The notes below the pieces were generated by a model. That model did not search any database, had not been told where the DNA came from, and worked only from the letters and a program-made list of their open reading frames with translations. This document shows, piece after piece, positions 698 to 51,210 of a stretch of DNA of 64,000 bases. A program made the translations under genes and the position numbers. How positions within the stretch are numbered: position 1 is the stretch's first letter; each line of letters opens with the position of its first letter. The stretch is taken from contig CBDBJL010000004.1 in assembly GCA_965206365.1 (NCBI GenBank), positions 141,144 to 205,143 of the forward strand. The letters run 5' to 3'. The stretch comes from Alphaproteobacteria bacterium (GTDB lineage: Bacteria; Pseudomonadota; Alphaproteobacteria; JABAAW01; JAHZMA01).

Positions 698-706
698 GAG
701 GCTTTT

Positions 707-4774: not shown

Positions 4775-4788
4775 ATAGGAGAAAAACT

Positions 4789-5334: not shown

Positions 5335-5631
5335 ATGAGCAAACTATTTTACAAGGCCATGATTGAAGACATCCAAAACGAAAAATGCACCGACGCAGAG
5401 CTGGAAGCGCTGCTAAATGCCTTTGAGTACACAGTCAAGAAAATGGCCACCACGCTGGCCCGTAAAGCTTGGTACACGCTGGAAGATTACGCCACTGCCA
5501 AACAATACGGCATCGACCGCTTTACGCTGATGATTGAGCGCAAAGAAGTCCTTGGGCAAGAGCAATGGCATGGTGTTTTTGAATATGGCAGCAAGAACCT
5601 CAAAGTTATAGGAACACTGGAAAAGGATTAA
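5335..5631 (+). CDS. hypothetical protein
   Basis: AGGAGA RBS at 5321-5326; no recognised domain. Confidence 0.4.
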   Translation: MSKLFYKAMIEDIQNEKCTDAELEALLNAFEYTVKKMATTLARKAWYTLEDYATAKQYGIDRFTLMIERKEVLGQEQWHGVFEYGSKNLKVIGTLEKD

Positions 5632-6581
5632 TCCTGCTCTGTATTCATGTCCCAGTCAGACTGACGTATCTCGCCTGTTTGATAAAACTGACGGATTAAC
5701 TTGATATATTGCAAGAAGTCTTTGTTTTCTTCCGTCAACCTGTTCGCCGTATCCCAATCAATTTCGGTGCGTTCCTTGGCAGGAATCATGATTTGGCTTT
5801 CAGATGGGTTTTCAGCGTCCAGTCGAATAAAGCCAATGCCATGAAGGCTGGCAAGCATCCTAAGCTCTTTCAAGGTATCAGCACCTTCGATTTCGCTGGC
5901 AACTAAATAGCCGAAGTTTGCCCATGAAGAGTTGCTTACGGCTTGGAAAAAGACTTCGCGTACGTTTGAGCGATTGATTAATATCTTAACCTCAAACGAC
6001 CATAGTTTAGTTTTCTTATCAGCATATTGCTGCACGCAGTCTTTTATTTCACGGTGCCAATCGCAACTGAGGTCTTCCATGCCGACAAGATCAGGGTAAA
6101 GCCACTTATTACCACCTGCGCCTCTGGAATTGCGGGATCGCTTTTCATCAATTCTTTTGCTGTAAAGCTCAAGCTCTGACCAGAGAAACTCTGACAGGAT
6201 GGGGTAAAGGTCATGTTCTTTTACTACAGATCCGTTCGCTTTTGTGGCGGGTGAAGGCTCATGACTCTCAGCATGGTCAATCTCAGCACTGTCAGTTGAT
6301 TCAGTGAAATAGTACTTTCGAGGGCGGCCTTCTGTGGTTTTAACTTCGGGATGGCGCTTCTGCAGTCGTGGACGTTGTGAACCAATTTCAGCAACGATTT
6401 GCTGCAGCAATGCTGTTTCATTGTCGAGCGGATTAACGGTAGCTGTTGAGCGCTTTTGTTTTTGGCGGCATTCATCTGGATAGGTTTCAAATATCCAATT
6501 GGCAATTTCCCGAGCGGTAAATTTTTGCTCTGGGTTCTGCTGTAAAAATTCAGCGACAGTGTTCGCCAAGTTTAGCGCCAT
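5628..6581 (-). CDS. winged-HTH plus PD-(D/E)xK-like nuclease-fold protein (restriction-endonuclease-like cargo gene)
   Basis: N-terminal wHTH-like segment (FTAREIANWIFETYPDE); central YPDLVG...SFEVKI resembling a PD-(D/E)xK core; antisense to the flanking phage genes. Confidence 0.45.
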   Translation of the reverse strand: MALNLANTVAEFLQQNPEQKFTAREIANWIFETYPDECRQKQKRSTATVNPLDNETALLQQIVAEIGSQRPRLQKRHPEVKTTEGRPRKYYFTESTDSAEIDHAESHEPSPATKANGSVVKEHDLYPILSEFLWSELELYSKRIDEKRSRNSRGAGGNKWLYPDLVGMEDLSCDWHREIKDCVQQYADKKTKLWSFEVKILINRSNVREVFFQAVSNSSWANFGYLVASEIEGADTLKELRMLASLHGIGFIRLDAENPSESQIMIPAKERTEIDWDTANRLTEENKDFLQYIKLIRQFYQTGEIRQSDWDMNTEQD

Positions 6582-6655
6582 TATTCATTCTCTTTCATTT
6601 TCGTACTCACAGATATTACCAAGATTTACCAATTTCACAAGAAAAGAGGAGAAAA

Positions 6656-7102
6656 ATGAGACACATCACACAAAACGGATTGGACCTGATCAAACGGTTC
6701 GAGGGCTTCTCTCGGACCGTTTATTTTTGTCCGGCTGGTTATCCCACCATTGGCTATGGTCACGTTGTCAAAGATGATGAGGACTTTTCATCGGGTATTG
6801 ATGAAGCACAGGCTGAGGAGCTTTTGCGGCAAGATGCTCAGATTGCAGAGCGTGCCGTCCTGCGCCTGATTAACGTCCCGCTGACAGACGGTCAGTTCGA
6901 TGCACTGGTGTCTTTTACCTATAATCTGGGCGGTGGTGCGCTCCAGCGTTCCACACTGCGCCGTAAAATCAACCGCGAGGAACACGCCGAAGTGCCAGAA
7001 CAATTCATGCGCTGGGTCTGGGCTGGTGGCCGTAAGCTCAAAGGGCTGGTTCGACGACGGGCTGCTGAAAGCGATTTATATCAGTATTCCCAGTTTTCAT
7101 GA
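6656..7102 (+). CDS. GH24 lysozyme (phage endolysin)
   Basis: FEGF...TIGYGH signature of T4/P22-type lysozymes; AGGAG RBS. Confidence 0.8.
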   Translation: MRHITQNGLDLIKRFEGFSRTVYFCPAGYPTIGYGHVVKDDEDFSSGIDEAQAEELLRQDAQIAERAVLRLINVPLTDGQFDALVSFTYNLGGGALQRSTLRRKINREEHAEVPEQFMRWVWAGGRKLKGLVRRRAAESDLYQYSQFS

Positions 7103-7809
7103 GCTAAAGGAGATCTGTTCAAATCATCTCTGAAAGTTCTCCATTGGGGCATAATGCGATCCATATGAGCTATAAAGTTATCATTGTGTGTGCGCTCTAG
7201 AAAATGGACCATTTCATAAACGACAATATACTCAAGGCAGTTAATTGGTTTTTTGATAAGCTCCAAGTTAAGCCATATTCTTTTATGGCTGGGGTTACAG
7301 CTACCCCATTTTGTTTTCATCCTTTTAATGCCGAATGAATCCACCTGTAAACCAGACTTAATTTCCCATTTTCGAACAATGCCGGGGAGTATTCTTTTCA
7401 TTTCCTTACGGTACCAATCCGTAAGCAATTTTTCTCGATCCTCGAGTTCGGTGTCTCTATTGATATTTAACACCAGCGTTTTTTTATTTCGGATTTCAAT
7501 AAAGGGACGTTTTTCAGTCTCAGCAATATCTAATAAGTATCTACGGCCAAGATAGTAATGACTTTCCCCAGTAATGAGCTCTCTGGCACTCTGGCGGGGT
7601 TGATCTTCAAAAGATTTTATTTGGCGCTTAATCCACCCGAATTTCGATATGACGGCTAATCTAACAGCCTCATCGTCAACAATTTCTGGAACAGCAATTC
7701 TGACCCATCCATTAGGTGGGTAAACAGCCAAGTGAAGGTTTTTTATTTTCTTTCGGATAACCTTCACAGGCAGTTCATTTACAGTAATTGTGCTTTCATT
7801 AGTACTCAC
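7081..7809 (-). CDS. M48/DUF45-family zinc metallopeptidase (YgjP-like, type I R-M associated)
   Basis: HExxH motif in YEMVHFLERTHN; 242 aa; immediately downstream of hsdR. Confidence 0.75.
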   Translation of the reverse strand: MSTNESTITVNELPVKVIRKKIKNLHLAVYPPNGWVRIAVPEIVDDEAVRLAVISKFGWIKRQIKSFEDQPRQSARELITGESHYYLGRRYLLDIAETEKRPFIEIRNKKTLVLNINRDTELEDREKLLTDWYRKEMKRILPGIVRKWEIKSGLQVDSFGIKRMKTKWGSCNPSHKRIWLNLELIKKPINCLEYIVVYEMVHFLERTHNDNFIAHMDRIMPQWRTFRDDLNRSPLAHENWEY

Positions 7810-10800
7810 TTTGATTTTTCACCAGTTCAAGTATTTGTTTCGCGTCATAGTCAGTAACGCTCAGAACAGAACGAATAGCCAGTTCTATTTCGCGTTCTTT
7901 GAACCTATTTCCACGAAAGCCGTCCTTCTTGGTAGCTCTAACAATTTTATCCACTTCAATGGCAAGATTCTCATCCTTTCCTAAATTGTCGTAGAGTGCT
8001 CTTTTGGCCGCAGAGTTCAAGGATTTTGGATAAGAGCTGTTTGTTTCTGGTCTTGAAACCTTTCCAGACAAATCAATAATCTTTTTCAGATAATCCTTAT
8101 ATTTAAGTGCCTGATCTTTACGCTCTTGAATGAGTGCATCAAGAAGCTCGGACATCTTTTCGTAGTATTTTGGGTTAACAGGCTGTTCATCAATGATGAC
8201 TTTTCGAATGTTATTTTCGATGGTTTCGGCAATAGCTTCCTCGTTGTTACGAATTCCTTCGGGTAGTTCTTTGATTGCATCTTCTCCGCGCTCAACAATA
8301 AGCTGGATAAGGCTGAGATCATCGAAAGCTGATATCTTTTGGCTTTCTTCTGCTCGGATATATGAATCAATCAAATGACGCATTGAAGGCTCGTAGACCT
8401 TCATGTCGATATAATCACCACTGGCCATTTTGACTTCAGTTCGAACAGATTCATAATGCTGCACTTCCGCCTTAATCTCTTCAATTTCTTCAGGCGAGTA
8501 GCCAGCATCAGCCATTTCATTTGCCAGAGCGGCATATGCGCGAATGAATGAACCACTTTCCTTGTACAATGCTAATCTACGCGGTTCGTTGTCCTTCAAA
8601 GCATCTTTGTCAGATGTATCCAGTGCACAGAAATATTGAATATACGCAGCAGTGTCTTTTGGTGTGCCAACATTTTCACAAAGAGCTTTTACGGTTTCGC
8701 GTGTTTCATCCAAGCGTTCTCTGGCTTTGATAAGACGATCTTCAAGTAGGCCAGCAACGTCCTCTTTGTCGTATTTATCAAATGCACCGCAAGTATAGTC
8801 TTGAATAGAGCTTTCCAAGCTGTTGAACAAATCCTTGTAGTCAATAATGTATCCGTATTCTTTATCCTCACCATCCAAGCGGTTTACGCGACAAATAGCT
8901 TGGAAAAGGCCATGATCTTGCATCTTTTTATCGATATAGAGATAGGTGGCAGATGGCGCATCAAATCCCGTTAGCAATTTATCGACTACAATCAGCAGAC
9001 GCATTTGTCCGGGTTCATCTACGAATTTTTCTTTAACTTTCTTCTCGAACTCATCAGCACGATTTACGGCCTGATCAGCAGGCTCGTCAAAGAAGTTAGC
9101 CAGCATTTTACGGTAGATATCATACTGGTGCAGTCTTTCGGTATACCCTGCGCCACTTTCTTCATTTTTAATATCTTGTGGTGATGGTTTGTAGGAGGTC
9201 ACAATCGCGCATTTGCCAGAAAGGTCTGTCTTATCAAAAAGCTCAAAGAATTTGCATGCTTGATAAATACTGCCAGAAACCAGAATTGCGTTACCACGGC
9301 CATCTGCAAGCCGATCCCGCGTTTCCATATCCAGCAAAATATCCGCAACAATATTTTCCAGACGTGATTGAGAGCTGAGAACCTTTTGCATGGTTCCCCA
9401 TTTCTTTTTCAATTGTGCCCGGGCGAAATCATTGAGACCTTTTGTCTTTGCCTCAAACCACAGATCAATTTTGTCCTGAGAGGTAATGTTCTGGTCAATG
9501 TCACGCGCCTCATAGCGCAAGTCGAGTACAACGCCGTCCTTAACGGCCTCATCAAATTTGTATGTATGAATGTAAGGCCCGAAAACTTCGAGGCTGGTTT
9601 GCTTATCATCCTTGAGCAAAGGTGTACCTGTAAAACCGATAAATAAGGCATTCGGCAAGATCTTCTTCATGGCCGTATGTAGCTTGCCGGACTGCGTACG
9701 GTGACATTCATCTACAAACACATAGATGTCACCCTTTGCCTCAAAGTTGGACATCATATTCTTCTGAATTTCAGCCAAGAACTTGTCGACATCTTCATCA
9801 GACAATTCATCATTATCTGAGCCGCCAAATTTATGGACAAGCGAACACATCAGCCACTGATCGGTTCCATTCAGCGTATGAACAAGATCAGAGCCACTGG
9901 TGGTGCGATAAATATCCTCATCGACACCGCGATAAACTTTCTCTATTTGTTCGTCCAGTTCGGTACGATCGGTGATAATTAGAACGCGAGAGTCCTTCAC
10001 GTTCTCACGTATCCATTTTGTGAGCCACACCATGGTCAGGCTTTTGCCCGAACCTTGCGTATGCCAGATGATCCCGCCCTGGCGACGGCGAATATGATCC
10101 TGCGCTTCCTTGATCCCAAAATATTGGTTCTGGCGGCAAGTCTTTTTTACACCTGCATCAAAAACGATGAAGTCATGTATTAGCTCAAGTAAACGATGTT
10201 TCTCGCACATAATTGAGAGGTGCCGATCCAGTTTATAGTCACCAATGCCACCGTCTTCTTTCCATTCCAGATAATACTTCTCGCTGGTCTCAATGGTGCC
10301 GTACCGCAAGCCTTGCGTATCATTTCCAGCCATCACTAATTGCATGGTGGTGAAGAATGGACGGATGAAGTCTTTTCGCTGATTAAGCAGATTCTGGCGA
10401 ATGCCTTCAGTAAGGCCAATGATGGAGCGTTTTAGCTCAACCACACCAATGGCTATACCGTTAAGATACAGCACTACATCCGGACGTTTGGTGTTGTTAC
10501 CTTTGACGGTGACTTCCTCAGCAATTGCAAAATCATTCTTTTCTGGTTCAGTCCAGTTGATAAGCCAAACAGTTTGATTTTGCTCGCCAGCGCCTTCCTT
10601 AACCTTGATGCCATAACGCAGCAGACGGTAAACGTCTTTGTTGGCGTCATAGAGGCTACGCCCATCGCCCAGTGCTGCAGCCTGATCTAACTCATGTAAA
10701 GCACGTTCAATGAGTTTGTCGCTGTAGCCTTGCTTTTGCAGAAATGCCTTTAACAGGCTTGGCTCTATGTTCTTATTCTCGCGGTCCTTCCGATCCCCAA

Positions 10801-10885
10801 GATAATCATACCCAAGTTGATCTTTGAACAACTTAACGATGCGGTTTTGCGTAACGCGCTCTATGGCTCCAACTTTACTCATCAT
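7799..10885 (-). CDS. hsdR: type I restriction enzyme R subunit
   Basis: SF2 helicase motifs (GSGKSLTMVWL, DECHRTQSG) and HsdR N-terminal region; ORF is open to 11002 but the likely start is MMSKVG at about 10885, overlapping the dinD stop. Confidence 0.9.
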   Translation of the reverse strand: MMSKVGAIERVTQNRIVKLFKDQLGYDYLGDRKDRENKNIEPSLLKAFLQKQGYSDKLIERALHELDQAAALGDGRSLYDANKDVYRLLRYGIKVKEGAGEQNQTVWLINWTEPEKNDFAIAEEVTVKGNNTKRPDVVLYLNGIAIGVVELKRSIIGLTEGIRQNLLNQRKDFIRPFFTTMQLVMAGNDTQGLRYGTIETSEKYYLEWKEDGGIGDYKLDRHLSIMCEKHRLLELIHDFIVFDAGVKKTCRQNQYFGIKEAQDHIRRRQGGIIWHTQGSGKSLTMVWLTKWIRENVKDSRVLIITDRTELDEQIEKVYRGVDEDIYRTTSGSDLVHTLNGTDQWLMCSLVHKFGGSDNDELSDEDVDKFLAEIQKNMMSNFEAKGDIYVFVDECHRTQSGKLHTAMKKILPNALFIGFTGTPLLKDDKQTSLEVFGPYIHTYKFDEAVKDGVVLDLRYEARDIDQNITSQDKIDLWFEAKTKGLNDFARAQLKKKWGTMQKVLSSQSRLENIVADILLDMETRDRLADGRGNAILVSGSIYQACKFFELFDKTDLSGKCAIVTSYKPSPQDIKNEESGAGYTERLHQYDIYRKMLANFFDEPADQAVNRADEFEKKVKEKFVDEPGQMRLLIVVDKLLTGFDAPSATYLYIDKKMQDHGLFQAICRVNRLDGEDKEYGYIIDYKDLFNSLESSIQDYTCGAFDKYDKEDVAGLLEDRLIKARERLDETRETVKALCENVGTPKDTAAYIQYFCALDTSDKDALKDNEPRRLALYKESGSFIRAYAALANEMADAGYSPEEIEEIKAEVQHYESVRTEVKMASGDYIDMKVYEPSMRHLIDSYIRAEESQKISAFDDLSLIQLIVERGEDAIKELPEGIRNNEEAIAETIENNIRKVIIDEQPVNPKYYEKMSELLDALIQERKDQALKYKDYLKKIIDLSGKVSRPETNSSYPKSLNSAAKRALYDNLGKDENLAIEVDKIVRATKKDGFRGNRFKEREIELAIRSVLSVTDYDAKQILELVKNQSEY

Positions 10886-11726
10886 TACTGTCCAAACTGT
10901 CTGGTGATTTAAGTGCTTTCTTCTCCTGCGAGGCAATACGACGCTCAAGCTTCTTGATATCTTCTGCAGGTGGTAAGGATTCTGGCCGGATACCACGTTC
11001 AATCAAAGTCTTACGAACAGCCTGATTATTGGTGACATGCTCACCGGATATCTGTGCTTCGGTACTCATATTATTTTCACGGGCGTTATGGATGGTAATT
11101 TCCGTCGCAAAGTCTTTCGCTTTTAGGATAATGGTTGACGCAAAATCGGCCAGTGGGCGACTATTAGGCACTTTCCACTGCGCCTTCATCTGCTGGGTGC
11201 TTTTGCCACACAACGCTTGGTCCCCCTTGCTGCGAATAATACCGAAATTGCGATCTTGACCTGTTTGCTCGTATATCACCTCTGATAGCTCTTTTTCTGT
11301 TTGGGTCAGCTTTTTGCGCGCAGAAAGACGCTCTTGTTCCAGAATGCGCTGCTCAATCAGCTCAGCCCTGCGGGTTTGCATGGCAAAATAGGTCTGAGCA
11401 AAGGCTATCTGTTCTTTTCTTGGGTCGCCGTTCTGAGCAATGAGATAGCAAGCGTAACGGGTAAGCATAACATCATCTATCTCTCGCTTACCGCCGGAAC
11501 CAAGATCGACCATTTTGCCGACGTCAGCAAAATGGTCAGAGACCTCATGCCCGCTGACCTCACAGGCCACTTTGGCCTTCGAGATCACCTGAGCAAAGTT
11601 TCGCCACTGGTCATATCCCAGAAGATGCTGCAAATCACGGGCAAGCCAGTATTCCACTTCACCCTCAGTTTGCTGGGCATGAAGCTCAAAATTATCTGTT
11701 AGTGTGGTAATGAGCTCTTTTTTCAT
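10875..11726 (-). CDS. dinD: DNA-damage-inducible protein D-like (Bro-N domain)
   Basis: Matches DinD from recalled sequence (EYWLARDL..L.Y..WRNF..V..A...C..SGH..SDHF....KMV.LGSG..RE..DV.L.RYACYL..QNGDP); inserted between hsdS and hsdR. Confidence 0.7.
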   Translation of the reverse strand: MKKELITTLTDNFELHAQQTEGEVEYWLARDLQHLLGYDQWRNFAQVISKAKVACEVSGHEVSDHFADVGKMVDLGSGGKREIDDVMLTRYACYLIAQNGDPRKEQIAFAQTYFAMQTRRAELIEQRILEQERLSARKKLTQTEKELSEVIYEQTGQDRNFGIIRSKGDQALCGKSTQQMKAQWKVPNSRPLADFASTIILKAKDFATEITIHNARENNMSTEAQISGEHVTNNQAVRKTLIERGIRPESLPPAEDIKKLERRIASQEKKALKSPDSLDSNDE

Positions 11727-13034
11727 GCCGCCTCCTGCTTTTTGTCGGTTTTGGTTAATCGTGTTTTGCCTGTCAAAAGCTCCTGCATCATGCCTGTCTT
11801 GAGGCTGAGGGCCTTGGCAAGGCGCTGCTCAAGCGCGTCAATTTCAGCATCCATGTCAGACAAGATATTAGAAATCGCGGTTTGCTCATCTTTATCAGGA
11901 AACTTGAATTCCATTGATTCAACTGATTTTGGTGTCAAATTATTAATGCTGGAACCAGCTAAAAGGACATCAATTTGTTTTCTGCAATAATCTGAATTGA
12001 GAAGATAAAAAATAAATTTTGGAATGGATTTTTTAAGGTCGGTGCGAAAGCACCCCATAAAAGCGCCAAATGTAAATTTATTGCTCTTGTTGTCAGAAAA
12101 AATAGCGGATTTTCCAATTAATTTTTTACTTCCATTTGCCATACATATGACAATGTCATTTTCATTTAAATATTGCTCGGTTGATACACATCCCCTCTTT
12201 ACAAACTGAACATCTGAAAAGTTTACTCTTGCAAATTTAATATTGTTAGACCGCAATAAGTATGGCTGCGTCATTATTGTCAGATGCAAATAGATCTGTC
12301 GCTCCACTGTAACTCACACCGCGCAAACAACTGCCAAATTCACCTAATTGAAACTCTTTCCATTCTTCATCAAACCCCGGAAGGCGTTTTTTGCCTGTAA
12401 GGAGCTCTTGCATGGCGGCGGTTTTCATGTCGTGTTTTTTGACGATCAGCTTCTCAAGGCTTTTAATCAGTCCATCCACATCTGACAGTGCTGCCGCAAT
12501 CTGCTTTTGCTCTTCAGGCTTGGGAAGAGGCAATACTATGGATGAAAGCAGCCGTCCATTTGTTAACGCCCTAGTTGTATAGGTACTTTTGGAAGTTATC
12601 TGTTTTCTTACTTCATCAGAGGAAAAACAGTATTTGCAATAATCCTCTTCAATTGACTTGGATTTGGGGCGACCACGCAATACAAAGCCACTAAATACTG
12701 TTTCATTGCAATCGTCCAACATCACAGATGCAACACCAATATCTTCAACAGTTTCAGATGTCCGTGTAAAAAAAACATCTCCTTTTTTGACCGAAAAGTT
12801 TTGCTTTTCTTGAAACGTTACATCAACTTTTCCCTGAAGATTATTGAGCCTCAAGCCTGAAAAATTAAAAACGTCCATATAGTTAACAATAGGCGTTCCG
12901 TAACCAAAGAATTCTTTGGCTTTATTTAAACCATTCTTAAACTCAAAAAGATCACCAATTAGAGCTTCATCCCAATCCTCTGGGATAACGCCGATGTCTG
13001 TTTGTTTATATCCTGCCTTCATATCTGCCATCAC
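11723..13034 (-). pseudogene. hsdS: type I R-M specificity subunit, disrupted by a frameshift between 12246 and about 12330
   Basis: ORF 12246..13034 holds TRD1, the central conserved repeat and the start of TRD2; ORF 11723..12307 in another frame holds the rest of TRD2 and the C-terminal conserved region (LKTGMMQELLTGKTRL). Confidence 0.7.
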
Positions 13035-15514
13035 CAGCTTAACCCCATCTTTTTCAAATGCTCTTCCACGCGGTCGGAGTAATCTGAAACCTGCTTGGTC
13101 AGTTCCGGCATGGGGTGGGCATAGCGTTCTTCAAGCTCTTTCACGCGGTTCGCCAAAACTTGCGTTACACGTTCCACCTCTGCCGCTACATCTGCACTAA
13201 GGCGGTCAAACCATTTGTCGATGACAACCAATTCCTTAATCTCGTCAACATCAAGTTTGGCGTAATGCGATACGGTTTTCTTATCGAGTTCGAGCTGCTG
13301 CACCTTTATCTTCGAGGCCAGCGCACTTTCTTGATCCAGCAGTTTCTGCGCTTGTTTCAGGACGACCATTTCATCCTCAAGGTCTTCATCGCCTTTAATT
13401 TCTTTCATACGATCCTTGAGGCTGGTTTTCGTAAGCTTGCCTTTATCATTTTTCGCATCTTCCAGCAGACCTTCTTCGCCACTGTGCTCTTCGGTCAGCT
13501 CTTCAATTTCCCCTGCAACGGTCTCACGCTGTGCTTCAAGCCCATCAATGGCCTGCTTCTCATCCGCAAAATAGCGCTGCACAATTAAGGCAGGTGGGAT
13601 CAGCTCAGCTTTGAATTTTTGAGCCTTTTTGCCTGTGCCGACAACGATGTCTGGTGTTTCTTTGACTTTTTTGTCCTTGTCTTTTTCATCAATGATCAAG
13701 CGTATTTGCGCTGCGTCTTTCCAACCTTCACCGGAGATTTGATAAACATCATCCTGCATGACCTCAGACCAGTAATTCATTAAATGCTGGTACACATCGT
13801 ATTTATCGATCAGTGGAATATTTGAGAAAGTGGAAAGCAAGTCCTCTGAAATTTCCCAGATCACATCCTTTGGCTTGCAGTCTTGTTCGAGTGATTTTAG
13901 ATATGGCTCGTACTTATCTTTCCAACCTGTCAGGGTTTCTTCGGCCTTTTTGGCATATGCCTGATATTCAGCTGAATCCAGTATGGTGGATTTGACTTGA
14001 TCGCTTGGCACGCGGGCAATGAGATAATCTGGGCTGCCATTTTGTTTGAAGAGTGCTTCGCGGGTTGCTGTAAATACATTCCAGTAACGCTGGAGTTCAT
14101 CAACATCACGTTTTGGAATGCCACCCTTTAAATGCGCTGTTAGATCATGGATGTCCGCTTCATCACCGCTATCAATATAGCGCGGCAGATTAAGGTTATA
14201 GTCATTTTTCGGATCTGATATTTCGGAGACAGGTACCAAGCGGGAGAAGCCTTCGATTTCTAACCCCTTATTGAAAACATCAACAATTTTGTGAATGTCT
14301 TGGGAGCGAAGGCGGTTCTTATTACCATCTTTGATAAAGCCCTTACTCGCATCAATCATAAAGATGCCTTTGCGGGACGCGGCATGTTCTTTGTCTAGCA
14401 CAATAATACAGGCTGGAATGCCTGTGCCGTAAAACAAGTTTGCGGGCAGGCCTATCACACCTTTGATATAACCACGCTTCACCACTTCTTTACGGATGGT
14501 GGCTTCCGCGTTCCCACGGAACAATACGCCGTGTGGAAGAATGACAGCGCCTTTACCAGTGCTTTTCAACGAACGGACAATGTGCAGCAAAAAGGCATAA
14601 TCGCCATTCTTCGATGGGGGCACGCCATAATCAAAACGGCCATATAAGTCGGTGATGGTCTTTTTCTTCTCGTCCTTGGCAAAACCGTTTTGCCATGATT
14701 TGGTTGAGAATGGAGGGTTGGCGACCACAAAATCAAATGTTTTCAGCTCAGATGCAGATGGTGCAAATGCTGGGGCAGATAGAGTGCTGCTCCCACCCGC
14801 TTCAATTTCAGCGGTCGGGTTGTCATGCAAGATCATGTTCATTTTTGCCAGCGCGGTAGTGGCAACATCTTTTTCCTGACCGTAAATAGACATACCACTT
14901 GGCGATTCATCAGCTGCTTTCAACAACAATGAGCCAGAGCCACATGTGGGGTCGTAAACTGTTTGGTCTTGGCGCGTTTCTTTACCGATGCCGATGACTT
15001 TGGCCATGATACGGGAAACTTCGGCAGGCGTATAAAACTGCCCTTTGCTTTTACCGCTTTCCGTTGCGAAGTGGCGCATCAGATATTCATAGGCATCCCC
15101 GAGGAGGTCGTCGCCTTCTGCGCGATTGCTACGGAAATCCAGATCATTAAAAATCGATACCAGCTTTGACAGCCGGTCCTGCATTTCCTTACCTTTGCCA
15201 AGTTTGTCTTCGTCATTGAAATCGGCAACATCAATCACACCCTTGAGACCATTGGCTTCGGCAAGTTTGCCGATGGCTTTGTTAATTTTATCACCGATCT
15301 CTTTATCGCCTTTGAGGGCAACCAAATCAGCGAAGCCACCGCCTTCTGGAATTTCAATCAATGAGTTTGGCTTGCCTGCGTATTTGTCAGACACATATTT
15401 TACGAAGAGCAATGTCAGTACATAGTCTTTGTACTGTGAGGCATCCATCCCGCCACGCAGTTCGTCGCAACTTTTCCAGAGTGAGCTGTATAACGCTGAT
15501 TTTTTAATTGCCAT
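13031..15514 (-). CDS. hsdM: type I R-M N6-adenine methyltransferase subunit, long form with coiled-coil C-terminal extension
   Basis: HsdM N-terminal region, NPPF catalytic motif (VVANPPFS) and an approx. 300-aa charged coiled-coil C-terminus; probable start is the internal Met (ORF open to 15547); ATGA overlap with hsdS. Confidence 0.9.
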   Translation of the reverse strand: MAIKKSALYSSLWKSCDELRGGMDASQYKDYVLTLLFVKYVSDKYAGKPNSLIEIPEGGGFADLVALKGDKEIGDKINKAIGKLAEANGLKGVIDVADFNDEDKLGKGKEMQDRLSKLVSIFNDLDFRSNRAEGDDLLGDAYEYLMRHFATESGKSKGQFYTPAEVSRIMAKVIGIGKETRQDQTVYDPTCGSGSLLLKAADESPSGMSIYGQEKDVATTALAKMNMILHDNPTAEIEAGGSSTLSAPAFAPSASELKTFDFVVANPPFSTKSWQNGFAKDEKKKTITDLYGRFDYGVPPSKNGDYAFLLHIVRSLKSTGKGAVILPHGVLFRGNAEATIRKEVVKRGYIKGVIGLPANLFYGTGIPACIIVLDKEHAASRKGIFMIDASKGFIKDGNKNRLRSQDIHKIVDVFNKGLEIEGFSRLVPVSEISDPKNDYNLNLPRYIDSGDEADIHDLTAHLKGGIPKRDVDELQRYWNVFTATREALFKQNGSPDYLIARVPSDQVKSTILDSAEYQAYAKKAEETLTGWKDKYEPYLKSLEQDCKPKDVIWEISEDLLSTFSNIPLIDKYDVYQHLMNYWSEVMQDDVYQISGEGWKDAAQIRLIIDEKDKDKKVKETPDIVVGTGKKAQKFKAELIPPALIVQRYFADEKQAIDGLEAQRETVAGEIEELTEEHSGEEGLLEDAKNDKGKLTKTSLKDRMKEIKGDEDLEDEMVVLKQAQKLLDQESALASKIKVQQLELDKKTVSHYAKLDVDEIKELVVIDKWFDRLSADVAAEVERVTQVLANRVKELEERYAHPMPELTKQVSDYSDRVEEHLKKMGLSW

Positions 15515-15704
15515 CGTTTTTGTCCTCGCCTTTTTGTTCTTGCTCACTGATCCAGCGGTCTACCTCGCTTTTGCGAAACCGCCACGCGCTTCCCACTTTG
15601 AAGCCCGGAACCTTGCCCTCAGATGCAAATCGATAGGCCGTCTTCTCAGCAATCTTGAGGTAATCGGCGAGTTCCTTCACGGTCATAATGTCATCATTAG
15701 TCAT
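15504..15704 (-). CDS. AlpA/excisionase-family HTH DNA-binding protein
   Basis: 66 aa with MerR/AlpA-like HTH (TVKELADYLKIAEKTAYRFASEGKVPGFKVGSAWRF); heads the hsdM operon. Confidence 0.65.
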   Translation of the reverse strand: MTNDDIMTVKELADYLKIAEKTAYRFASEGKVPGFKVGSAWRFRKSEVDRWISEQEQKGEDKNDGN

Positions 15705-15802
15705 ATTTTTTTGTCCCTTGAGGTATCATAGGATTGAAAATAGTGGAAATTGAGTGAACAATCAAGTAAGTTATCGAGGAAATCAAATTATAAGACAGGG
15801 TT

Positions 15803-16834: not shown

Positions 16835-16874
16835 AACCTCGTCCTTCAGGGCGGGGATATAAGGCGCAACCGCG

Positions 16875-17297
16875 CTAGCGCGGTTTTTTGTTGGCTCGCT
16901 GCGTTTCGACATATTTGCGGATAATATCGAGCGGCGCACCACCACATGAAGCGGCAAAATAAGACGGCGACCAAAGGACACCTTTGCGATACCTACCCGT
17001 AATTTCAGGGCGAAAGCTTCGCAAACGGCGACTGGATACACCCTTGAGACTGTTGACCAGCTTAGAGAGGGATATTTTGGGCGGATAATTGATAAGCAGA
17101 TGCACATGGTCGTCTTCCCCGTCACACTCGACGAGTTGCGCCTCAAAGTCGTTGCAGACCTTGGCAAAGATGTGCCGCAAGTCCTGTATAGCCAGTTCTG
17201 ACAGCACATCTCTGCGGTATTTGGTAATAAATACCAAGTGTACGTGTAGCGCAAAAACACAATGTCTGCCTGTGCGATATTCATTTGAGTTGTCCAT
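16875..17297 (-). CDS. tnpA: IS200/IS605 Y1 (HuH) transposase
   Basis: HVHLLI (HuH) and catalytic Tyr region; track ORF extends to 17354 but the family-typical start is MDNSNEYRTGRH. Confidence 0.8.
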   Translation of the reverse strand: MDNSNEYRTGRHCVFALHVHLVFITKYRRDVLSELAIQDLRHIFAKVCNDFEAQLVECDGEDDHVHLLINYPPKISLSKLVNSLKGVSSRRLRSFRPEITGRYRKGVLWSPSYFAASCGGAPLDIIRKYVETQRANKKPR

Positions 17298-17319
17298 AGA
17301 CCAATGGTAGAGTCGAGAT

Positions 17320-18489
17320 ATGCTAAAGGCAACCAAAGTCCGATTGTATCCCACTGTTGACCAGAGGAAGGCGTTTGCCTTTCAATTTGGCGCGATGCGG
17401 TGGGCGTATAATTTTACTTTGGGCTGGCGTAGCTCCGCTTGGAAAGAGCGCGGCGAAAGCATCAGCAAGCGCCAGACCTTGGACAAGCTCGTTGAACTGA
17501 AAGCCACGGAAGAAACAGGCTGGCTAAAGGAAGCCGATAGCCAAGCCTTGCAACAATCGGTGATGCATTTGGATGATGCCTTTAAGCGATTTTTTAGAAA
17601 ACAGGGCCGCTATCCCCGCTTTAAGAGCAAACACGGCAAACAAGCCATGTCCTACCCGCAACGGGTCAAAATTGTAAATGGTGTCAGTCTGTACTTGCCC
17701 AAAGTCGGCACGGTCAAAGCAGTTCTGCACCGTGAGATTGTAGGTAAGATTAAGACCGTCACCATCTCGCGCACTCAAACAGGTAAGTACTATGCGTCAA
17801 TCTTGTGTGATGATGGGCTGGAGGTTCCAGCCCTCTTAAAAACGATTGAAGCGGACGCGGTGACGGGTATTGATTTGGGCATAACGCATTTAGCGATTGC
17901 CAGCACGGGTGAAAAACAAAAGAACCCCCGTATTTTGAAACGTGCGGCGGCCAATTTGCGCCGCAAGCAAAAAACACTGTCACGAAAGAAGAAAGGGTCG
18001 GCAAACCGCAACAAGGCGCGTGTACTTGTTGCCAAGGCTCACGAAAGAACTGCCAACACGCGCAATGACTTTCAACATAAATTGTCAAAACGACTGGTTG
18101 ACGAAAATCAAGCAATCTGCGTGGAGACGTTGAAAGTCAAAAACATGCTCAAGAATAGGAAGCTTGCCAAACATATCGCTGACGCGGCATGGGGCGAATT
18201 GCTCCGAAAGCTGACCTACAAAACAGCTTGGTCAGGTAAGCACCTCGTGCAAATTGACCAGTGGTTTGCATCCAGTAAGACCTGTTCTGATTGCGGCACT
18301 AAGGTTGATGCTATGCCGCTGTCGGTGCGGCAATGGACGTGCCAGACCTGCGACCAAGAGCATGACCGCGATATTAACGCTGCCATCAATATTCGGCAAC
18401 AAGGTATCCTGAAACTAAAGGCGGAAGGGCTATCCGTCTCTGCTTGTGGAGGCTCGCGTAATTCTGGCACACTGCCAGTTGCAGCCTGA
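17320..18489 (+). CDS. tnpB: IS605 OrfB/TnpB RuvC-like RNA-guided endonuclease
   Basis: RuvC-like motifs and C-terminal zinc finger CSDCG...CQTCD; 389 aa. Confidence 0.85.
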   Translation: MLKATKVRLYPTVDQRKAFAFQFGAMRWAYNFTLGWRSSAWKERGESISKRQTLDKLVELKATEETGWLKEADSQALQQSVMHLDDAFKRFFRKQGRYPRFKSKHGKQAMSYPQRVKIVNGVSLYLPKVGTVKAVLHREIVGKIKTVTISRTQTGKYYASILCDDGLEVPALLKTIEADAVTGIDLGITHLAIASTGEKQKNPRILKRAAANLRRKQKTLSRKKKGSANRNKARVLVAKAHERTANTRNDFQHKLSKRLVDENQAICVETLKVKNMLKNRKLAKHIADAAWGELLRKLTYKTAWSGKHLVQIDQWFASSKTCSDCGTKVDAMPLSVRQWTCQTCDQEHDRDINAAINIRQQGILKLKAEGLSVSACGGSRNSGTLPVAA

Positions 18490-20859: not shown

Positions 20860-21350
20860 GAACAACTACCGACTTTCGTCGGTAGGTTCACGTTTTGAAT
20901 GTAATTCAAGATACTGACGAATAACGTCATCCGTCACATTTCCACTCGTCGTTGAAAAATAGCCTCTAGCCCAGAACCGTTGCCCCCAATAGCGTTTGCG
21001 TAATTCGGGGTACTCCCGCTGTATCTTGTATGAGGACCTCCCTTTTACGCGTTGCATCACCTTTGAAATTGGGACGTGCGGCGGGACTGACACAAACATA
21101 TGCACATGGTCGGTAGACAATACGCCTTTTTCAATGTGTACGCCCAATTCATTGCACGTTTGTCGTATCAATGTCCGAATACGCTCACGCATTTCACCAC
21201 GCAGCACCTTGTAACGATATTTTGTTACCCAAACGATATGGTATCTGTGATAATATCTGCTATGACTTCCAGTAGAATAGATCATAAGGTTTCCTTCCAT
21301 TTTAAGACCTTACCGCAACGCTGGGTCTTAAAATGGAAGGAAACCTTATG
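20860..21350 (-). mobile_element. solo IS200-like element
   Basis: tnpA flanked by a 26-bp perfect hairpin (21284-21309 / 21324-21349) on one side and a ctaccgac...gtcggtag hairpin (20868-20887) on the other. Confidence 0.7.
20866..21300 (-). CDS. tnpA: IS200 Y1 transposase
   Basis: HVHMFV HuH motif; typical IS200 TnpA length and sequence (YHIVWVTKYRYKVL). Confidence 0.85.
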   Translation of the reverse strand: MEGNLMIYSTGSHSRYYHRYHIVWVTKYRYKVLRGEMRERIRTLIRQTCNELGVHIEKGVLSTDHVHMFVSVPPHVPISKVMQRVKGRSSYKIQREYPELRKRYWGQRFWARGYFSTTSGNVTDDVIRQYLELHSKREPTDESR

Positions 21351-39825: not shown

Positions 39826-40611
39826 TTAGTAGTTAGAGAGAACGCCGATTTTGATCAGATAATTATCAAAGAAATCAAAATTGGCAAAATTGCCTTTCTT
39901 ATTTTTTGCTTTCACATCAGCGCCGTATTCGATTAAAATATCAATCATAGCAATCGTTTCTTCATAAGTGACATTACTAGTGGGCTCATATTGTTCATCT
40001 TCACTACATCCGCCACCTTCACTACACTCAATATAATGTTTTTCCCTATCGTATATTTGGTGTACGTATTTTCCATGAACAGCCTTAAAAAATGGGGTTT
40101 CACCATCATCATCACGGGCATTTACATCCGCCCCGGCATCTAGCAAAAGCTTGGTGATTTCAGCATTTTCAGTGTTATGCAAAGGCGTTTCTCCGTTAAT
40201 ACGATTACGGGCATTCGCATCTGCCCCTGCACTTAGTAACAGCTTAACAATTTCAGCATCGCGAGCCCAATGCAAAGGCGTATATTCCCAATAACTTTTG
40301 ATATTCACATCTGCCCCCTCTTCAATTAAGAAAATCGCAATCTCACTCCTTCCAGCAAGAAGAGCCCCAGGTAATAAAGTTTCACCATTTTCATCTCTGC
40401 TATTAATATCAATGCCCATTGCCAGTAATTCTTGAATATCAGCAAGGGTAGCGGTTTTCACATCAAAATAATATCTTATAGGATCTTCAATATCTACAAT
40501 TTCTTCCGCTTGCGCTATAACAAAAAAAAAGATTCCACCCATAAGAACACCCGTTATGAGTATGTTTATTAGCAAATTTGCGTGTTTGCTTTTTACCTTT
40601 AATTTTGCCAT
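39826..40611 (-). CDS. ankyrin-repeat protein with N-terminal signal/anchor helix
   Basis: Hydrophobic N-terminal helix followed by at least four ankyrin repeats (TPLHWA..., ETPLHNT..., ETPFFKA...). Confidence 0.8.
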   Translation of the reverse strand: MAKLKVKSKHANLLINILITGVLMGGIFFFVIAQAEEIVDIEDPIRYYFDVKTATLADIQELLAMGIDINSRDENGETLLPGALLAGRSEIAIFLIEEGADVNIKSYWEYTPLHWARDAEIVKLLLSAGADANARNRINGETPLHNTENAEITKLLLDAGADVNARDDDGETPFFKAVHGKYVHQIYDREKHYIECSEGGGCSEDEQYEPTSNVTYEETIAMIDILIEYGADVKAKNKKGNFANFDFFDNYLIKIGVLSNY

Positions 40612-44580: not shown

Positions 44581-45034
44581 TATTTCCTTTCAATATTGCG
44601 CCGATAGCAGAATAGCCGGCTTTATCGAGCCAGCTATCGCTGTGCGCGGGGTTGTTCATTAAACGCGCTGTTTTTAGCGCATCCAAACATAAAGCCACTT
44701 GTTGTGGCTTAATTTTTGCGCGTAAAATCACGCTCCACAGCTTGGCAATTTCGGCAAAATGCTGGTTAGGGTCGCCATAAATCGCCCGCGATTTCAGAGT
44801 TTCTGCTAAATCTTGGCAAAAATCCTTATCTAAGGGTTGCTTGGCGGGGGGCACAGAATGCTCCCTGCCTGTATTTAGTTGCTGGATTCTGGCTTTCGCC
44901 CATTTCGGGCAATCAATATTAACACCCGTATCATCAAGGGCATGTTGCCATTTATCATCTTCTTCCCGCTCATTAATAATTCGCGAGATTGCACGCGCCA
45001 AAAGATATTTTTTCAAATGAAATTCAGCTATCAT
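44570..45034 (-). CDS. hypothetical protein (possible helicase-associated)
   Basis: 154 aa, immediately downstream of dnaB in the same operon. Confidence 0.35.
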   Translation of the reverse strand: MIAEFHLKKYLLARAISRIINEREEDDKWQHALDDTGVNIDCPKWAKARIQQLNTGREHSVPPAKQPLDKDFCQDLAETLKSRAIYGDPNQHFAEIAKLWSVILRAKIKPQQVALCLDALKTARLMNNPAHSDSWLDKAGYSAIGAILKGNNDG

Positions 45035-46479
45035 TTTTTCTCTAAATTTTCAAAAAGGGTGTATTTTGGCTCAAAATATAACGCCACTTCGCCAATTGCG
45101 CCGTGGCGTTGTTTTTGCACCGATAGAACGGCTTTATTTTTTGAATTTATTAATAATTCATTATGTTTTTCCTGCCTAAGCGCAAATTTTGCATCACTTT
45201 CAACATCGCGTTGTTCGGGTGTTTTGCGTTCAAGATAATATTCAGCACGATACAAAAACATCACCACATCGGCATCTTGTTCAATTGCGCCAGAATCTCG
45301 CAAATCAGAAAGTTGGGGGATCGGCGGGTCGCGTTGCTCTACCGCGCGCGATAATTGCGATAATACCAAAACCGGAATATCTAATTCTTTAGCAAGGGCT
45401 TTTAAGCCTTGCGATATCGATGTAATTTCATTTACTCGTCCATCATATTTGCCGCCCGCTTTCATTAATTGCAAATAATCGATAACGATTAAATCTAAAC
45501 TTTGGCGGCGCATTAATCGCCTAGCCCGCTGCCTAATAATCGCCACATTTATGGCGGGTGTTTGGTCAATAAAAATGGGCATTTGGTCGATAATGGCGGC
45601 GGTTCTGGCCAGGGTAGAAAATCCACGCGCAGAGATATTGCCGCGGCGCATATCATCGCTGGCAATTTTACACGCGCCAGATAAAATTCGTGCCGTTAAT
45701 TGTTCGGCACTCATTTCCAGTGAAAACACGGCTACGCGTCCGCCTTCGATTTCTTCATTATCAATATTTTTAAATTTGCTAGCAACATTATAGGCAATAT
45801 TTAACGCTAGTGCGGTTTTGCCCATGCTGGGGCGGGCAGCTAAAATAATCAAATCGCTTTTATGCAGCCCGCCCAAAATTTTATCAATATCATAAAATCC
45901 GGTGCTAATGCCGCTAATACCACCTCCGCGTTTAATTGCTGCGCTAATATTTTGAATTGCTGAATGTAAATGGGTTTTAATATTAATTAATTTCGCGCCA
46001 TCTTCGCCTTTTTCCGCCAATTCGAACAGAGCAGTTTCTTGTTCCTCAAGAATTTCATTGCCGGTTTTAGTAACATCGCCAGATTGTGCAATTTCAACAT
46101 ATTGTTGATTTATTAAAATTAATTCGCGTTTTAAGGCAAGGCTGGCAAGCGTTTTGGCATATTGTCCAACAGAGATCATTGAAAATACATTATTCGCCAA
46201 AGTCTGCAAATAATTATCCCAATCAGCATCAAGATGTGGAATTTCTTTTAGCAAATAAGCCAATGTATCTTCGTTTGCAGTTAGCCCTTCAGTCACTAAT
46301 TTGGATATTTCCGTGAAAATAATACGATGAACGTCATGATAAAAATGGCTTGGCTGACTGATATCAACAATTTTTTCAAAAACCTTATTATTGCGCAAAA
46401 GCGCGCCTAGCAAAGCGGCTTCAATTTCGATGGAATAAGGCATGGCAGCAGGCGCAGGTTTTTTAAGATAATCAGCCAT
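45031..46479 (-). CDS. dnaB: DnaB-family replicative DNA helicase
   Basis: N-terminal DnaB domain and RecA-like core with Walker A ARPSMGKTALAL; 482 aa. Confidence 0.9.
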   Translation of the reverse strand: MADYLKKPAPAAMPYSIEIEAALLGALLRNNKVFEKIVDISQPSHFYHDVHRIIFTEISKLVTEGLTANEDTLAYLLKEIPHLDADWDNYLQTLANNVFSMISVGQYAKTLASLALKRELILINQQYVEIAQSGDVTKTGNEILEEQETALFELAEKGEDGAKLINIKTHLHSAIQNISAAIKRGGGISGISTGFYDIDKILGGLHKSDLIILAARPSMGKTALALNIAYNVASKFKNIDNEEIEGGRVAVFSLEMSAEQLTARILSGACKIASDDMRRGNISARGFSTLARTAAIIDQMPIFIDQTPAINVAIIRQRARRLMRRQSLDLIVIDYLQLMKAGGKYDGRVNEITSISQGLKALAKELDIPVLVLSQLSRAVEQRDPPIPQLSDLRDSGAIEQDADVVMFLYRAEYYLERKTPEQRDVESDAKFALRQEKHNELLINSKNKAVLSVQKQRHGAIGEVALYFEPKYTLFENLEKK

Positions 46480-49026: not shown

Positions 49027-51210
49027 TTATCCATGAGTCTCCAACAAATACTCCTGACCAAAAGTCTCTTCCATCATTTTGAAAGATCTATAGTTTGGCG
49101 ATTGCTGATAAATTTTTAACCATTGCGCATCCTCAATATTGATAAGCTCGCCATTTGCGATGGTTTTTTCCAAAGCTTTAGATCGTTGAAACAAAGTGGC
49201 AGGGGTTGGCGCAATTTGCACCACATTAGCGGTTGAATTTTCAGCTGATTTTTGTTCAGATGCTAGTTCTGGCGCAATTGTCCGGTTGCTGATTTTTTGT
49301 GATTTTCTAGGCAAAACATGCAAATTATTCGGCGGAATTTCGCCTTCAATAAAGCCATGCTTAATCGCATGTTCACGCCGTTGGGCATGTTTAAAATTTT
49401 CTAAAATTTTGTAAAAATCGTCATTATCAATCTGTTTTGCGGCATGGGCGATTTCGCGCTTGATCTCTTTGTTATGCGCGCGCTTGGTGGCTTTGGCAAT
49501 ATGTGCCACCGCCATGCGGTTAATACCTTCAAGCTCGGCATTATAAGCGGTGAATAAATATTCGCCATTTTCAACCCCAGATACGTAGATTTGCCCCATA
49601 TCTTCTAAATCCATCGCCACTTGTACAGTGTGTCCCATATAAAGATCTATCTCATGGGCTATAAAATAATGCCGATCCGCGCGAATACCTTTTTTGCCAA
49701 TAACGCGGGTGCCATCACCACCGGCTAATTTTGCAAACAAATAATGCATAATCGTGGGATCTTCCAAAGTTTTAATCTCACCGGTATAATTGGCTAATCT
49801 TTCAGCGGGCGAGCAACCAATCCCTTTGTGGAATCCCTGATAATAATCCTCTGCCACCCAATTGCTGGCGCGCCGCGCCAATTCATCGCGGGTTAATTTT
49901 ACTTTGCTAAACCGATCAATTTTTTCACCATTCGCCCGGGCGTTGCGATAGGCAAAGCTCTGCCTGTTTTCAATTTCAGTTTTTTCGGTAACATTATGCC
50001 CGGCATAACCGGGGTTCAGGCGCATAAAAGTGTCGTTAATAGTGCCGATAGCGCGTTCGATTCCGCCCTTTTCATGGGGTGAATAGGGGTTGGTTAAATC
50101 AATATTAATCCCGGTTTTAAACATAGCGTGCTTAAACCATTTGCTGGTGAAATCGCTACCATTATCGGTGCGCAAGCGTTCGGGCATGCCCCATTCGTTA
50201 ATTGCCCGCCGAATTAACCGTAAGGATCCGTGGGTGCTGGGTGAATCTGTAATTTCTACCAATAATCGCCGTGCATACATATCGGCGATCACATAAATAT
50301 TATATCTGCCATCATCGCAGATCACATCGGCGGGGCTAGCATCGATTTCCCATAATTCATTCGGGCGGGTAAGGTGGGCATACATTTCGCCCAAAGACAG
50401 CGCATATTTGCTGCGGGCTTTATCGGGGTTGCGTAATTTTAGCGCATCTGCGGGGTTTTTACGTGCCCAAGCATTAAACCAGTTGGCAATTTGGCGCGTT
50501 GAGGGAATTTCTTGAAACCCCTTTGCCAATAATAATTGATGGATTGTTTTGCCTGCCAAGCGAGTGCGCGTAAAATGCGCGATAATCTGGGTTTGTAGGT
50601 CGCGATTTGCATCAATAATGCTAGTGCCTTTGCGGTTGCCAAACTTGCCGGCAAGGCTTTTGAAATCGCCAATATTAACGGCTTTGCGCCACCGTAAAAC
50701 ACTGGCACGCGAAATATTAGTAAAGGCAAAATCGCCTGTAATTTTTCCCGAATTAAAATCATCTACAAAAGCGTCAATTCCTGCCATAACACCAATTTTA
50801 TGCGCTAATAAATAAGCGTTAAAAGCGTTGGCAATATCGGCGCGCGCGATACCGCGATCAATAGATTTAGGCAAGGTAGCAATGGTGGGCGAGGGGTTGC
50901 CCATATTGCTACCTCTATCAGCTGGTGGTAAGGCTTTGCCGGAACCACCCTCCTGATTCTGCACTCTTCCCTTTAGATGATAATTGGCGGGGGGGTTAAG
51001 GGGGGTGTCGCTCGGCGCGACATCGCACCCCCCTTTATAAATTGCAGGGATTTTATATTCGGCACCCCCGCCCTGATCGCGGCGAATTTGGCTTTGCCAG
51101 CCATCACGCTTGGCTTTATCGACAATAGCCCGCCGGGTTTTGGGCAGAGTGGCGATTTGCAATTTTGCAATTTCACCGGCAGATAGCCATATTTTGGCAC
51201 TATCTGGCAT
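49027..51210 (-). CDS. MuA-like DDE transposase
   Basis: N-terminal HTH and rve-type DDE core (WEIDASPADV, YVIADMYARRLL); carries an in-frame palindromic element at 50985-51034. Confidence 0.8.
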   Translation of the reverse strand: MPDSAKIWLSAGEIAKLQIATLPKTRRAIVDKAKRDGWQSQIRRDQGGGAEYKIPAIYKGGCDVAPSDTPLNPPANYHLKGRVQNQEGGSGKALPPADRGSNMGNPSPTIATLPKSIDRGIARADIANAFNAYLLAHKIGVMAGIDAFVDDFNSGKITGDFAFTNISRASVLRWRKAVNIGDFKSLAGKFGNRKGTSIIDANRDLQTQIIAHFTRTRLAGKTIHQLLLAKGFQEIPSTRQIANWFNAWARKNPADALKLRNPDKARSKYALSLGEMYAHLTRPNELWEIDASPADVICDDGRYNIYVIADMYARRLLVEITDSPSTHGSLRLIRRAINEWGMPERLRTDNGSDFTSKWFKHAMFKTGINIDLTNPYSPHEKGGIERAIGTINDTFMRLNPGYAGHNVTEKTEIENRQSFAYRNARANGEKIDRFSKVKLTRDELARRASNWVAEDYYQGFHKGIGCSPAERLANYTGEIKTLEDPTIMHYLFAKLAGGDGTRVIGKKGIRADRHYFIAHEIDLYMGHTVQVAMDLEDMGQIYVSGVENGEYLFTAYNAELEGINRMAVAHIAKATKRAHNKEIKREIAHAAKQIDNDDFYKILENFKHAQRREHAIKHGFIEGEIPPNNLHVLPRKSQKISNRTIAPELASEQKSAENSTANVVQIAPTPATLFQRSKALEKTIANGELINIEDAQWLKIYQQSPNYRSFKMMEETFGQEYLLETHG
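50985..51034. repeat. G6/C6 palindromic element inserted in frame in the transposase gene
   Basis: gggggggttaaggggggtgtcgctcggcgcgacatcgcaccccccttt encodes KGGCDVAPSDTPLNPP within MuA. Confidence 0.6.

Follow-up and report, generated by a model that had tools for sequence, protein, structure and literature searches.

The RRDM island of enteropathogenic Escherichia coli (EPEC) E2348/69 encodes RptR, HsdM, HsdS, DarT, DarG, HsdR and an M48 peptidase, in that order, and when cloned with its native promoter it protects E. coli from several phages, its first gene, rptR, acting as a repressor (PMC12255303). Here we describe an operon of the same plan in a 64,000-nucleotide stretch of the genome of an Alphaproteobacteria bacterium (contig CBDBJL010000004.1, positions 141,144 to 205,143; hereafter the window, in which position 1 is the first letter). 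The locus at 7081-15704 is a type I restriction-modification (R-M) operon on the minus strand that carries a DinD passenger gene. Its genes, read along that strand, encode an HTH_17 regulator (HTH, helix-turn-helix), HsdM, HsdS, DinD, HsdR and a YgjP/M48 peptidase, and their ends overlap; profile matches thus bear out the six genes, their order and their strand as proposed in an initial annotation of this DNA. As in RRDM, the peptidase gene abuts hsdR. The two systems differ in the size of HsdM (812 amino acids (aa) in RRDM, 827 aa in the window), in cargo (DarTG2 in RRDM, DinD in the window) and in the regulator (the four-helix RptR in RRDM, an HTH_17/MAD1-like protein in the window). Furthermore, in the window hsdS is frameshifted and the peptidase motif reads YExxH and not HExxH. 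We think it probable that this is a horizontally acquired RRDM-like operon in early decay, whose hsdS broke recently by a single-base insertion, alongside an H198Y substitution in the peptidase and a neighbouring gene split by an insertion sequence (IS).

The lesion in hsdS is defined to the base. A DNA alignment with the allele of a close relative, locus L081, shows a single surplus C in the window, at 12260 (GCCATA[C]TTATTGCGG in the window, GCCATATTATTGCGG in L081), inside the interval between 12246 and about 12330 in which the frameshift had been suspected. The hsdS frame is shifted past residue 257, and after 3 out-of-frame residues translation meets a premature TAA at 12248-12246, while the frame for the C-terminal part is open from about 12316 and runs to 11723. 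Two target recognition domains (TRDs) and two conserved helices are therefore all still encoded, but in two frames and not in one HsdS chain. Searching with the repaired protein, we found homologues that include the intact allele, P0122, which is 439 aa long and reads ...SDNDDAAILLRSNNIKF... over the junction (...DAAILLRSNNI...); it sits on L081, a 20.6-kb metagenome contig with the same six genes in the same order. Eleven other full-length HsdS homologues are colinear through the shift point in the protein alignment. The public record calls both open reading frames (ORFs) of the window hsdS on a single contig of 220,017 bp, as P0001 (261 aa) and P0121 (183 aa). P0121, the C-terminal ORF, is called from an ATG at 12274 that has no obvious Shine-Dalgarno sequence in front of it.

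A split hsdS could in principle be a switch. The Neisseria gonorrhoeae system NgoAV offers a parallel: a frameshift divides its hsdS in two (hsdS1/hsdS2), and, as in the window, the N-terminal ORF retains a complete first TRD (PMC9577141, PMC3874165). The NgoAV shift, however, lies in a poly-G tract through which hsdS is known to switch, making it phase-variable (PMC9577141), whereas the window shift lies in no repeat. Repeat scans found no homopolymer or short repeat at 12250-12270, as the initial annotation had already remarked, and no relevant tandem repeats within the operon, hsdS included. There is also no second hsdS copy in the window, no inverted repeat flanking hsdS and no recombinase in the operon, and in all 69 related loci with a complete hsdS the gene is a single uninterrupted two-TRD ORF. 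Together, these observations make the shift a plain insertion mutation or an assembly error, neither a phase-variation device nor a recoding site. Despite the NgoAV precedent, we thus regard phase variation, whether by slippage in a simple sequence repeat or by an inverton, as extremely improbable, and the same holds for +1 programmed ribosomal frameshifting, for which ATA-CTT-ATT offers no evident slippery site or stimulatory element. Programmed frameshifting was rejected on a further ground, as the intact allele yields the same protein although it lacks the extra base, so that the shift is a mutation and not a conserved recoding site.

If real, the hsdS lesion is very recent, because the frame downstream of it has not begun to erode. 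Relative to the intact allele, the 178 codons past the shift are unbroken, with a ratio of non-synonymous to synonymous divergence (dN/dS) of 0.16 and no second lesion, and the 300 nt at 12200-11901, within TRD2, are 99% identical to the L081 allele. A frame that is still open and a TRD2 so close to the intact copy leave two possibilities, a recent lesion or an assembly error. An error of this kind, with hsdS intact in the organism and the extra C confined to the contig, would agree with a lesion of only one base, with a downstream frame that has no break and, measured against the intact allele, is under purifying selection, and with the closest relatives being metagenome-assembled genomes (MAGs), so that the source is probably one likewise. 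We nevertheless judge it quite unlikely. The insertion lies outside any homopolymer, the setting in which insertion and deletion errors concentrate, and runs of A6-A8 inside hsdS are in frame; HsdM, DinD, HsdR and YgjP align in frame with their relatives over 8.4 kb, and the rest of the window contains unbroken long ORFs (650-802 aa). Moreover, the same two hsdS ORFs stand in the public record, and the operon contains a second, independent lesion, H198Y.

The similarity between the window and L081 is unevenly distributed. They share homologous DNA, 83.7% identical, only from 15514, where hsdM starts, to 7085, at the end of ygjP, from which it follows that a five-gene module moves among differing genomic contexts. 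Synonymous divergence (dS) from L081 is 0.81 for hsdM and 0.74 for dinD and is saturated for hsdR and ygjP; hsdS is 95.4% identical in nucleotides to the L081 allele, with dS 0.165. The backbone of the operon is nearest to that of L001, a Gammaproteobacteria MAG, with 88-96% nucleotide identity. The hsdS cassette (11901-13100), by contrast, is 93-99% identical to that of L081 and unrelated to that of L001, whereas the flanking hsdM and hsdR are nearer to L001. The pattern of identities indicates that the cassette was recently swapped between lineages by recombination, as is usual for specificity genes.

What the lesion means for activity is less straightforward. It was initially held that without HsdS the system can neither methylate nor restrict, which goes too far: in the 261-aa product TRD1 is complete and so is the central helix, the truncation falling about 35 aa into TRD2, and such truncations are active elsewhere. 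Indeed, palindromic sites are methylated and restricted under the direction of truncated HsdS homodimers in EcoR124I-delta50, in EcoDXXI-deltaC and, naturally, in NgoAV (PMC3874165, PMC9577141), and co-expressed N and C halves regenerate wild-type EcoDXXI (PMC3874165). By the same route, the 261-aa HsdS of the window might homodimerise and, with HsdM and HsdR, be active on a palindrome of the TRD1 half-site, and the C-terminal ORF might also pair. The two conserved HsdS helices, central and C-terminal, agree at 25 of 58 positions (43%), a trait thought to permit type IC homodimers, and a change of specificity would further be in keeping with a truncation point past the complete central helix. 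Among solved structures EcoR124I is the closest to both partners (best PDB matches 2.7e-57 for HsdM and 4.5e-35 for HsdR, the latter over residues 101-467 only), with EcoKI much further away, and both partners are pristine at all family-invariant sites (columns violated: 0/217 in HsdM and 0/298 in HsdR). We hold such a change to be possible but unlikely. Activity of half-size S subunits has been documented only in type IC proper (PMC3874165), and the window family is distant from it and has another HsdM, bearing a 350-aa tail that is absent from type IC; NgoAV, too, is a type IC system with an HsdM of normal length, and the activity shown for its truncated product is for the window only a prediction. 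A half-size or split hsdS occurs in 0 of the 69 related loci, which means that the family does not select for this state. In an unmethylated host, moreover, a newly arisen specificity would be self-toxic unless methylation came first, and the C-terminal ORF lacks an evident ribosome-binding site.

The second lesion lies at the other end of the operon. The zinc motif of YgjP, HExxH, reads YEMVH in the window, the histidine being replaced by tyrosine (H198Y, codon TAT at 7218-7216). This histidine is kept in 53 of 53 peptidase homologues, and L001, L002 and L081 have CAT at the position, so that a single C>T change accounts for the substitution. H198Y is the sole violation among 48 family-invariant columns of YgjP. 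The two lesions might be linked: if the peptidase served as a check on HsdR, for example by proteolysis when HsdR acts on host DNA (restriction alleviation), H198Y could have made restriction self-toxic and thereby selected for a knock-out of hsdS. We consider this very unlikely as an account of the locus. A literature search pairing YgjP, DUF45 or COG1451 with type I R-M turned up a single paper, that on RptR, in which an M48 peptidase is connected with hsdR, and the paper says nothing of function (PMC12255303).

The third lesion lies beside the operon. Directly upstream, a gene for a TM0106-family RecB-like nuclease/superfamily 1 (SF1) helicase is split by an IS200/IS605 element: positions 4-314 of TIGR03491 are found in 15803-16834 and positions 320-462 in 18446-20854, with tnpA (17354..16875) and tnpB (17320-18489) between them. 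The lesion in hsdS, H198Y and the split neighbour would together represent the first steps in the decay of a defence island, with HsdM, HsdR and DinD still intact. Of the alternatives offered initially, decay or phase variation, the former is thus plausible and the latter finds no machinery in the locus.

Several points weigh against this favoured reading of early decay. The extra base and the C>T change could both be assembly errors, being known from the deposited sequence and not from reads. The truncated HsdS keeps all that active half-size S subunits have, and its specificity may have changed instead of being lost. HsdM and HsdR are unrelaxed at invariant sites, which fits continued function as well as it fits a very recent event. 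Finally, decay is drawn from three lesions in one genome.

Early decay implies a working ancestor, which we picture as follows. In the intact state, to judge from the family of operons, the small HTH protein would control one promoter upstream of the operon; a complex of two HsdM and one HsdS would methylate a bipartite site set by the two TRDs; and a complex of two HsdR, two HsdM and one HsdS would translocate and cut unmethylated DNA. DinD would be an autonomous passenger on the same transcript. With the insertion at 12260, the two-TRD HsdS, and with it the original bipartite specificity, would no longer be made.

The features of the operon are collected in Table 1. Successive genes overlap at every junction (HTH/hsdM by 11 nt, hsdM/hsdS by 1 nt, hsdS/dinD by 4 nt, dinD/hsdR by 8-11 nt and hsdR/ygjP by 11 nt), which indicates one translationally coupled operon. 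The start of hsdM is the ATG at 15514. The length of 838 aa given initially corresponds to a reading from an upstream in-frame GTG, whereas 827 aa is backed by an 827-aa homologue in L081 and by end-to-end alignments. HsdM matches Pfam N6_Mtase (5.7e-102) and HsdM_N as well as TIGR00497 (283 bits, cutoff 243), and has DPTCGSG at residue 188 (motif I, DPxCGSG) and NPPF at residue 266 (motif IV). For hsdR, the start is the ATG at 10885 or 10882, and the gene ends at 7799; the protein matches HSDR_N, SWI2_SNF2/ResIII and a T1R_D3-like domain, together with TIGR00348 (541 bits), and has the DECH motif. The gene appears intact.

Table 1. Annotated features of the R-M operon, with coordinates in the window
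Feature	Coordinates	Strand	Domains and support
HTH_17 (excisionase/MerR-like, MAD1-like) DNA-binding protein, 66 aa	15504..15704	-	Pfam HTH_17 1.3e-16
hsdM, long form, 827 aa	13031..15514	-	HsdM_N, N6_Mtase core, helical tail of ~350 aa; PADLOC MTase_I PDLC03027 matched end to end
hsdS, N-terminal ORF, 261 aa	12246..13031	-	TRD1, central conserved helix, ~35 aa of TRD2
Frameshift base, extra C on the coding strand (G on the + strand)	12260	-	DNA alignment with L081
hsdS remainder, +1 frame	11723..12259	-	TRD2 and C-terminal conserved helix
dinD, 283 aa	10875..11726	-	Bro-N domain and C-terminal domain; NCBIfam NF008573
hsdR, ~1028 aa	7799..10885	-	HSDR_N nuclease domain, superfamily 2 (SF2) motor (DECH), C-terminal domains
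YgjP-like / 'M48 family' metallopeptidase, 242 aa	7081..7809	-	Pfam PF01863, 189 bits

The operon belongs to a large family. In a scan of bacteria and archaea that took one genome per species, at least 560 loci, from both domains, encode a full-length relative of the 827-aa HsdM. In the 80 loci that were fetched, the order hsdM, hsdS, a gap of 0-6 kb, hsdR and ygjP is kept, and in every related locus that reaches that far ygjP follows hsdR at a distance of -7 to +124 nt. PADLOC has full-length models for the long HsdM (810 positions) and for HsdR. The closest relatives come from Gammaproteobacteria and Cardiobacteriaceae MAGs. One of these relatives, the Cardiobacteriaceae MAG locus L003 (OZ255837.1, ~10001-19340), itself looks decayed: its match to HsdM does not begin until residue 108, and some 1.1 kb separate the two parts of its ygjP (residues 1-196 and 192-242).

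The long-HsdM family is also present in 265 of 5426 complete E. coli genomes. No near-identical DNA to the window locus was found in E. coli; distant matches there lead to the RRDM system of EPEC and O157. The O157 copy consists of an HTH-like pseudogene, HsdM (812 aa), HsdS, DarT, DarG, HsdR and an 'M48 family metallopeptidase', and its M48 and DarG share protein accessions with the RRDM island of EPEC E2348/69 (PMC12255303). Aligned end to end, the window proteins are 60% (HsdM), 62.5% (HsdR) and 48% (M48) identical to those of E. coli O157. On these comparisons, the window locus is an ordinary member of a widespread and already described RRDM-type kind of operon.

The tail of HsdM (residues ~470-827, at 13031-14110) matches no Pfam domain and no PDB sequence and has no structural relative in the PDB, and it is conserved across phyla, with 46-73% identity over 43 homologues. 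The AlphaFold model of the tail has a pLDDT (predicted local distance difference test) of 90 and places long helices at tail residues 242-285, 288-331 and 333-354; the tail is confidently predicted to be a helical domain with a long helical hairpin at its end. The initial annotation had remarked on a coiled-coil tail and the YgjP-like peptidase. Both are present, the tail in helical form according to the model, but by sequence comparison across the family the long HsdM and the peptidase are family-wide traits, not peculiar to this locus.

DinD matches the NCBIfam equivalog NF008573 at 379.5 bits (cutoff 242), residues 1-278 aligning with model positions 1-287 of 288, and also matches PADLOC PDC-S13, a candidate model, and phrog_8036; PDB sequence searches with DinD and with YgjP gave no match. 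The dinD gene shares nucleotides with both neighbours, its ATG with the stop of hsdS (ATGA) and its 3' end with the start of hsdR. No LexA box (CTGT-N8-ACAG) was found anywhere in the window and there is no room for a promoter of its own, so dinD is expressed with the R-M genes and not as an SOS gene. DinD stands alone on three plasmids examined, is alone too in E. coli K-12 and is present in phage genomes (phrog_8036). Its occurrence by itself on plasmids and in phages marks it as an autonomous gene that needs no R-M partner.

The slot in which dinD lies is a common site of cargo. The gap between hsdS and hsdR holds 0.4-5.8 kb of extra genes in 49 of the 58 related loci with both genes in range, and in about 15 of those loci there are extra genes between hsdM and hsdS. 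Among 100 gap ORFs, GmrSD is the commonest cargo (14), and others include Schlafen/HATPase_c_4 (7), AbiEii-like AAA_21 (6), NucS_C-like (6), YhcG/DUF1016 (4), DarT plus Macro (3) and Fic (3). DinD itself occupies the slot only in the close relatives of the window, L001-L003 and L081, at 88-95% amino-acid identity. A comparable case is EcoprrI, a type IC system that reportedly carries PrrC as cargo in the same hsdS-hsdR slot (Levitz et al. 1990, Tyndall et al. 1994). EcoprrI provides the model of a passenger forming a second line of defence, and what it has in common with the window is a gene foreign to R-M placed between hsdS and hsdR in a type IC-like operon; DinD and PrrC are unrelated. We know of no interaction of DinD with an R-M complex; a PrrC-like back-up effector tied to the complex is the best analogy for the part that DinD may play.

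DinD has been met near type I genes before. In Btr190I of Bibersteinia trehalosi, a dinD-hsdS fusion still functions as the specificity subunit (PMC4996451); there dinD is fused upstream of hsdS, whereas in the window it is separate and downstream of it. The PADLOC HsdS model PDLC03083 likewise carries a DinD-like N-terminus, and a dinD/RhuM gene lies between type I core genes in CP081899.1 (PMC9881135). In VPI-2 of Vibrio cholerae, the defence genes TgvAB, of the GmrSD family, are embedded in a type I cluster (PMC11411939), the same kind of arrangement with TgvAB as cargo in place of DinD. The description of dinD as an inserted, notable passenger thus holds as to the passenger but is otherwise overstated, with an 8.4-kb module, dinD included, common to the window and other genomes, with cargo in most related loci and with these published precedents.

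At the front of the operon, the stop of the HTH_17 gene overlaps the hsdM start, and the HTH_17 gene of L081 has the same 11-nt overlap with hsdM and a product 53% identical over 51 aa. The gene in this position varies: over 57 loci it encodes HTH_26 (Cro/C1-type) in 6 and HTH_73, HTH_17 (the window included), HTH_3 and HTH_31 in 3 each. The HTH_17 protein is likely to be a regulator of the operon, akin to RptR or to C proteins, and not an excisionase. The RRDM island has the RptR repressor and TAGCTA operators upstream, whereas the upstream gene of the window encodes an HTH_17 protein of another fold family. A consensus scan for promoters and operators upstream of the HTH gene gave nothing convincing on the minus strand; by eye, a weak TTGATT-17-TATTTT can be seen there. 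The HTH protein also scores 82 bits against the NCBIfam model MADS1 (MAD1; cutoff 80). Membership of the methylation-associated defence system (MADS) group was rejected, as HsdM scores 49 against 720 for MAD2 and HsdS 23-27 against 400 for MAD5, and no other mad genes are present.

Over about 5000-16000 the GC content is 0.38-0.47, compared with 0.50-0.53 in the flanks. On one side, 20-7102 holds phage tail-end genes, namely RCC1-like, DUF1833, NlpC/P60, tip-attachment protein J-like (756 aa) and, at 6656-7102, lysozyme. With 22 nt shared between the lysozyme ORF and the end of ygjP, a prophage-like region borders directly, at one of its ends, on the R-M module. On the other side, past the split helicase gene, a second IS200-type tnpA (21300..20866) adjoins a perfect 27-nt inverted repeat at 21283-21350, and a gene for a GmrSD-type (type IV) restriction enzyme (21401-23224) adjoins the split gene. 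A tRNA-Arg(CCT) gene lies at 24455-24530, about 1.2 kb past the GmrSD gene; it was rejected as an integration site, there being no duplicated tRNA segment in the window. A Mu-like prophage occupies 41351-64000, with an rve/Mu transposase (51210..49027), a DnaB-like helicase (46479..45031), a large terminase (59851-61206) and a Mu-type portal (61349-62959). At 38065-39220 on the minus strand, short consecutive ORFs in differing frames, AT-rich, encode ankyrin-repeat fragments, and an intact ankyrin-repeat gene lies at 40611..39826. From their sequence, the fragments look like another multi-lesion pseudogene, which hints at a host-associated genome that is gathering pseudogenes.

Together, these comparisons place the HsdM tail, the hsdR-coupled M48 peptidase and the cargo slot between hsdS and hsdR as traits of a whole family across bacteria and archaea, in a system shown to work in EPEC. 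The window would then be one more copy of a common type I architecture, caught just after losing its normal specificity subunit. The mutated peptidase site and the broken hsdS, side by side with pristine hsdM and hsdR, are a single observation, and the only thread here that may lead somewhere new: if the two lesions were indeed linked, this genome would be a natural genetic experiment pointing to the function of the peptidase.

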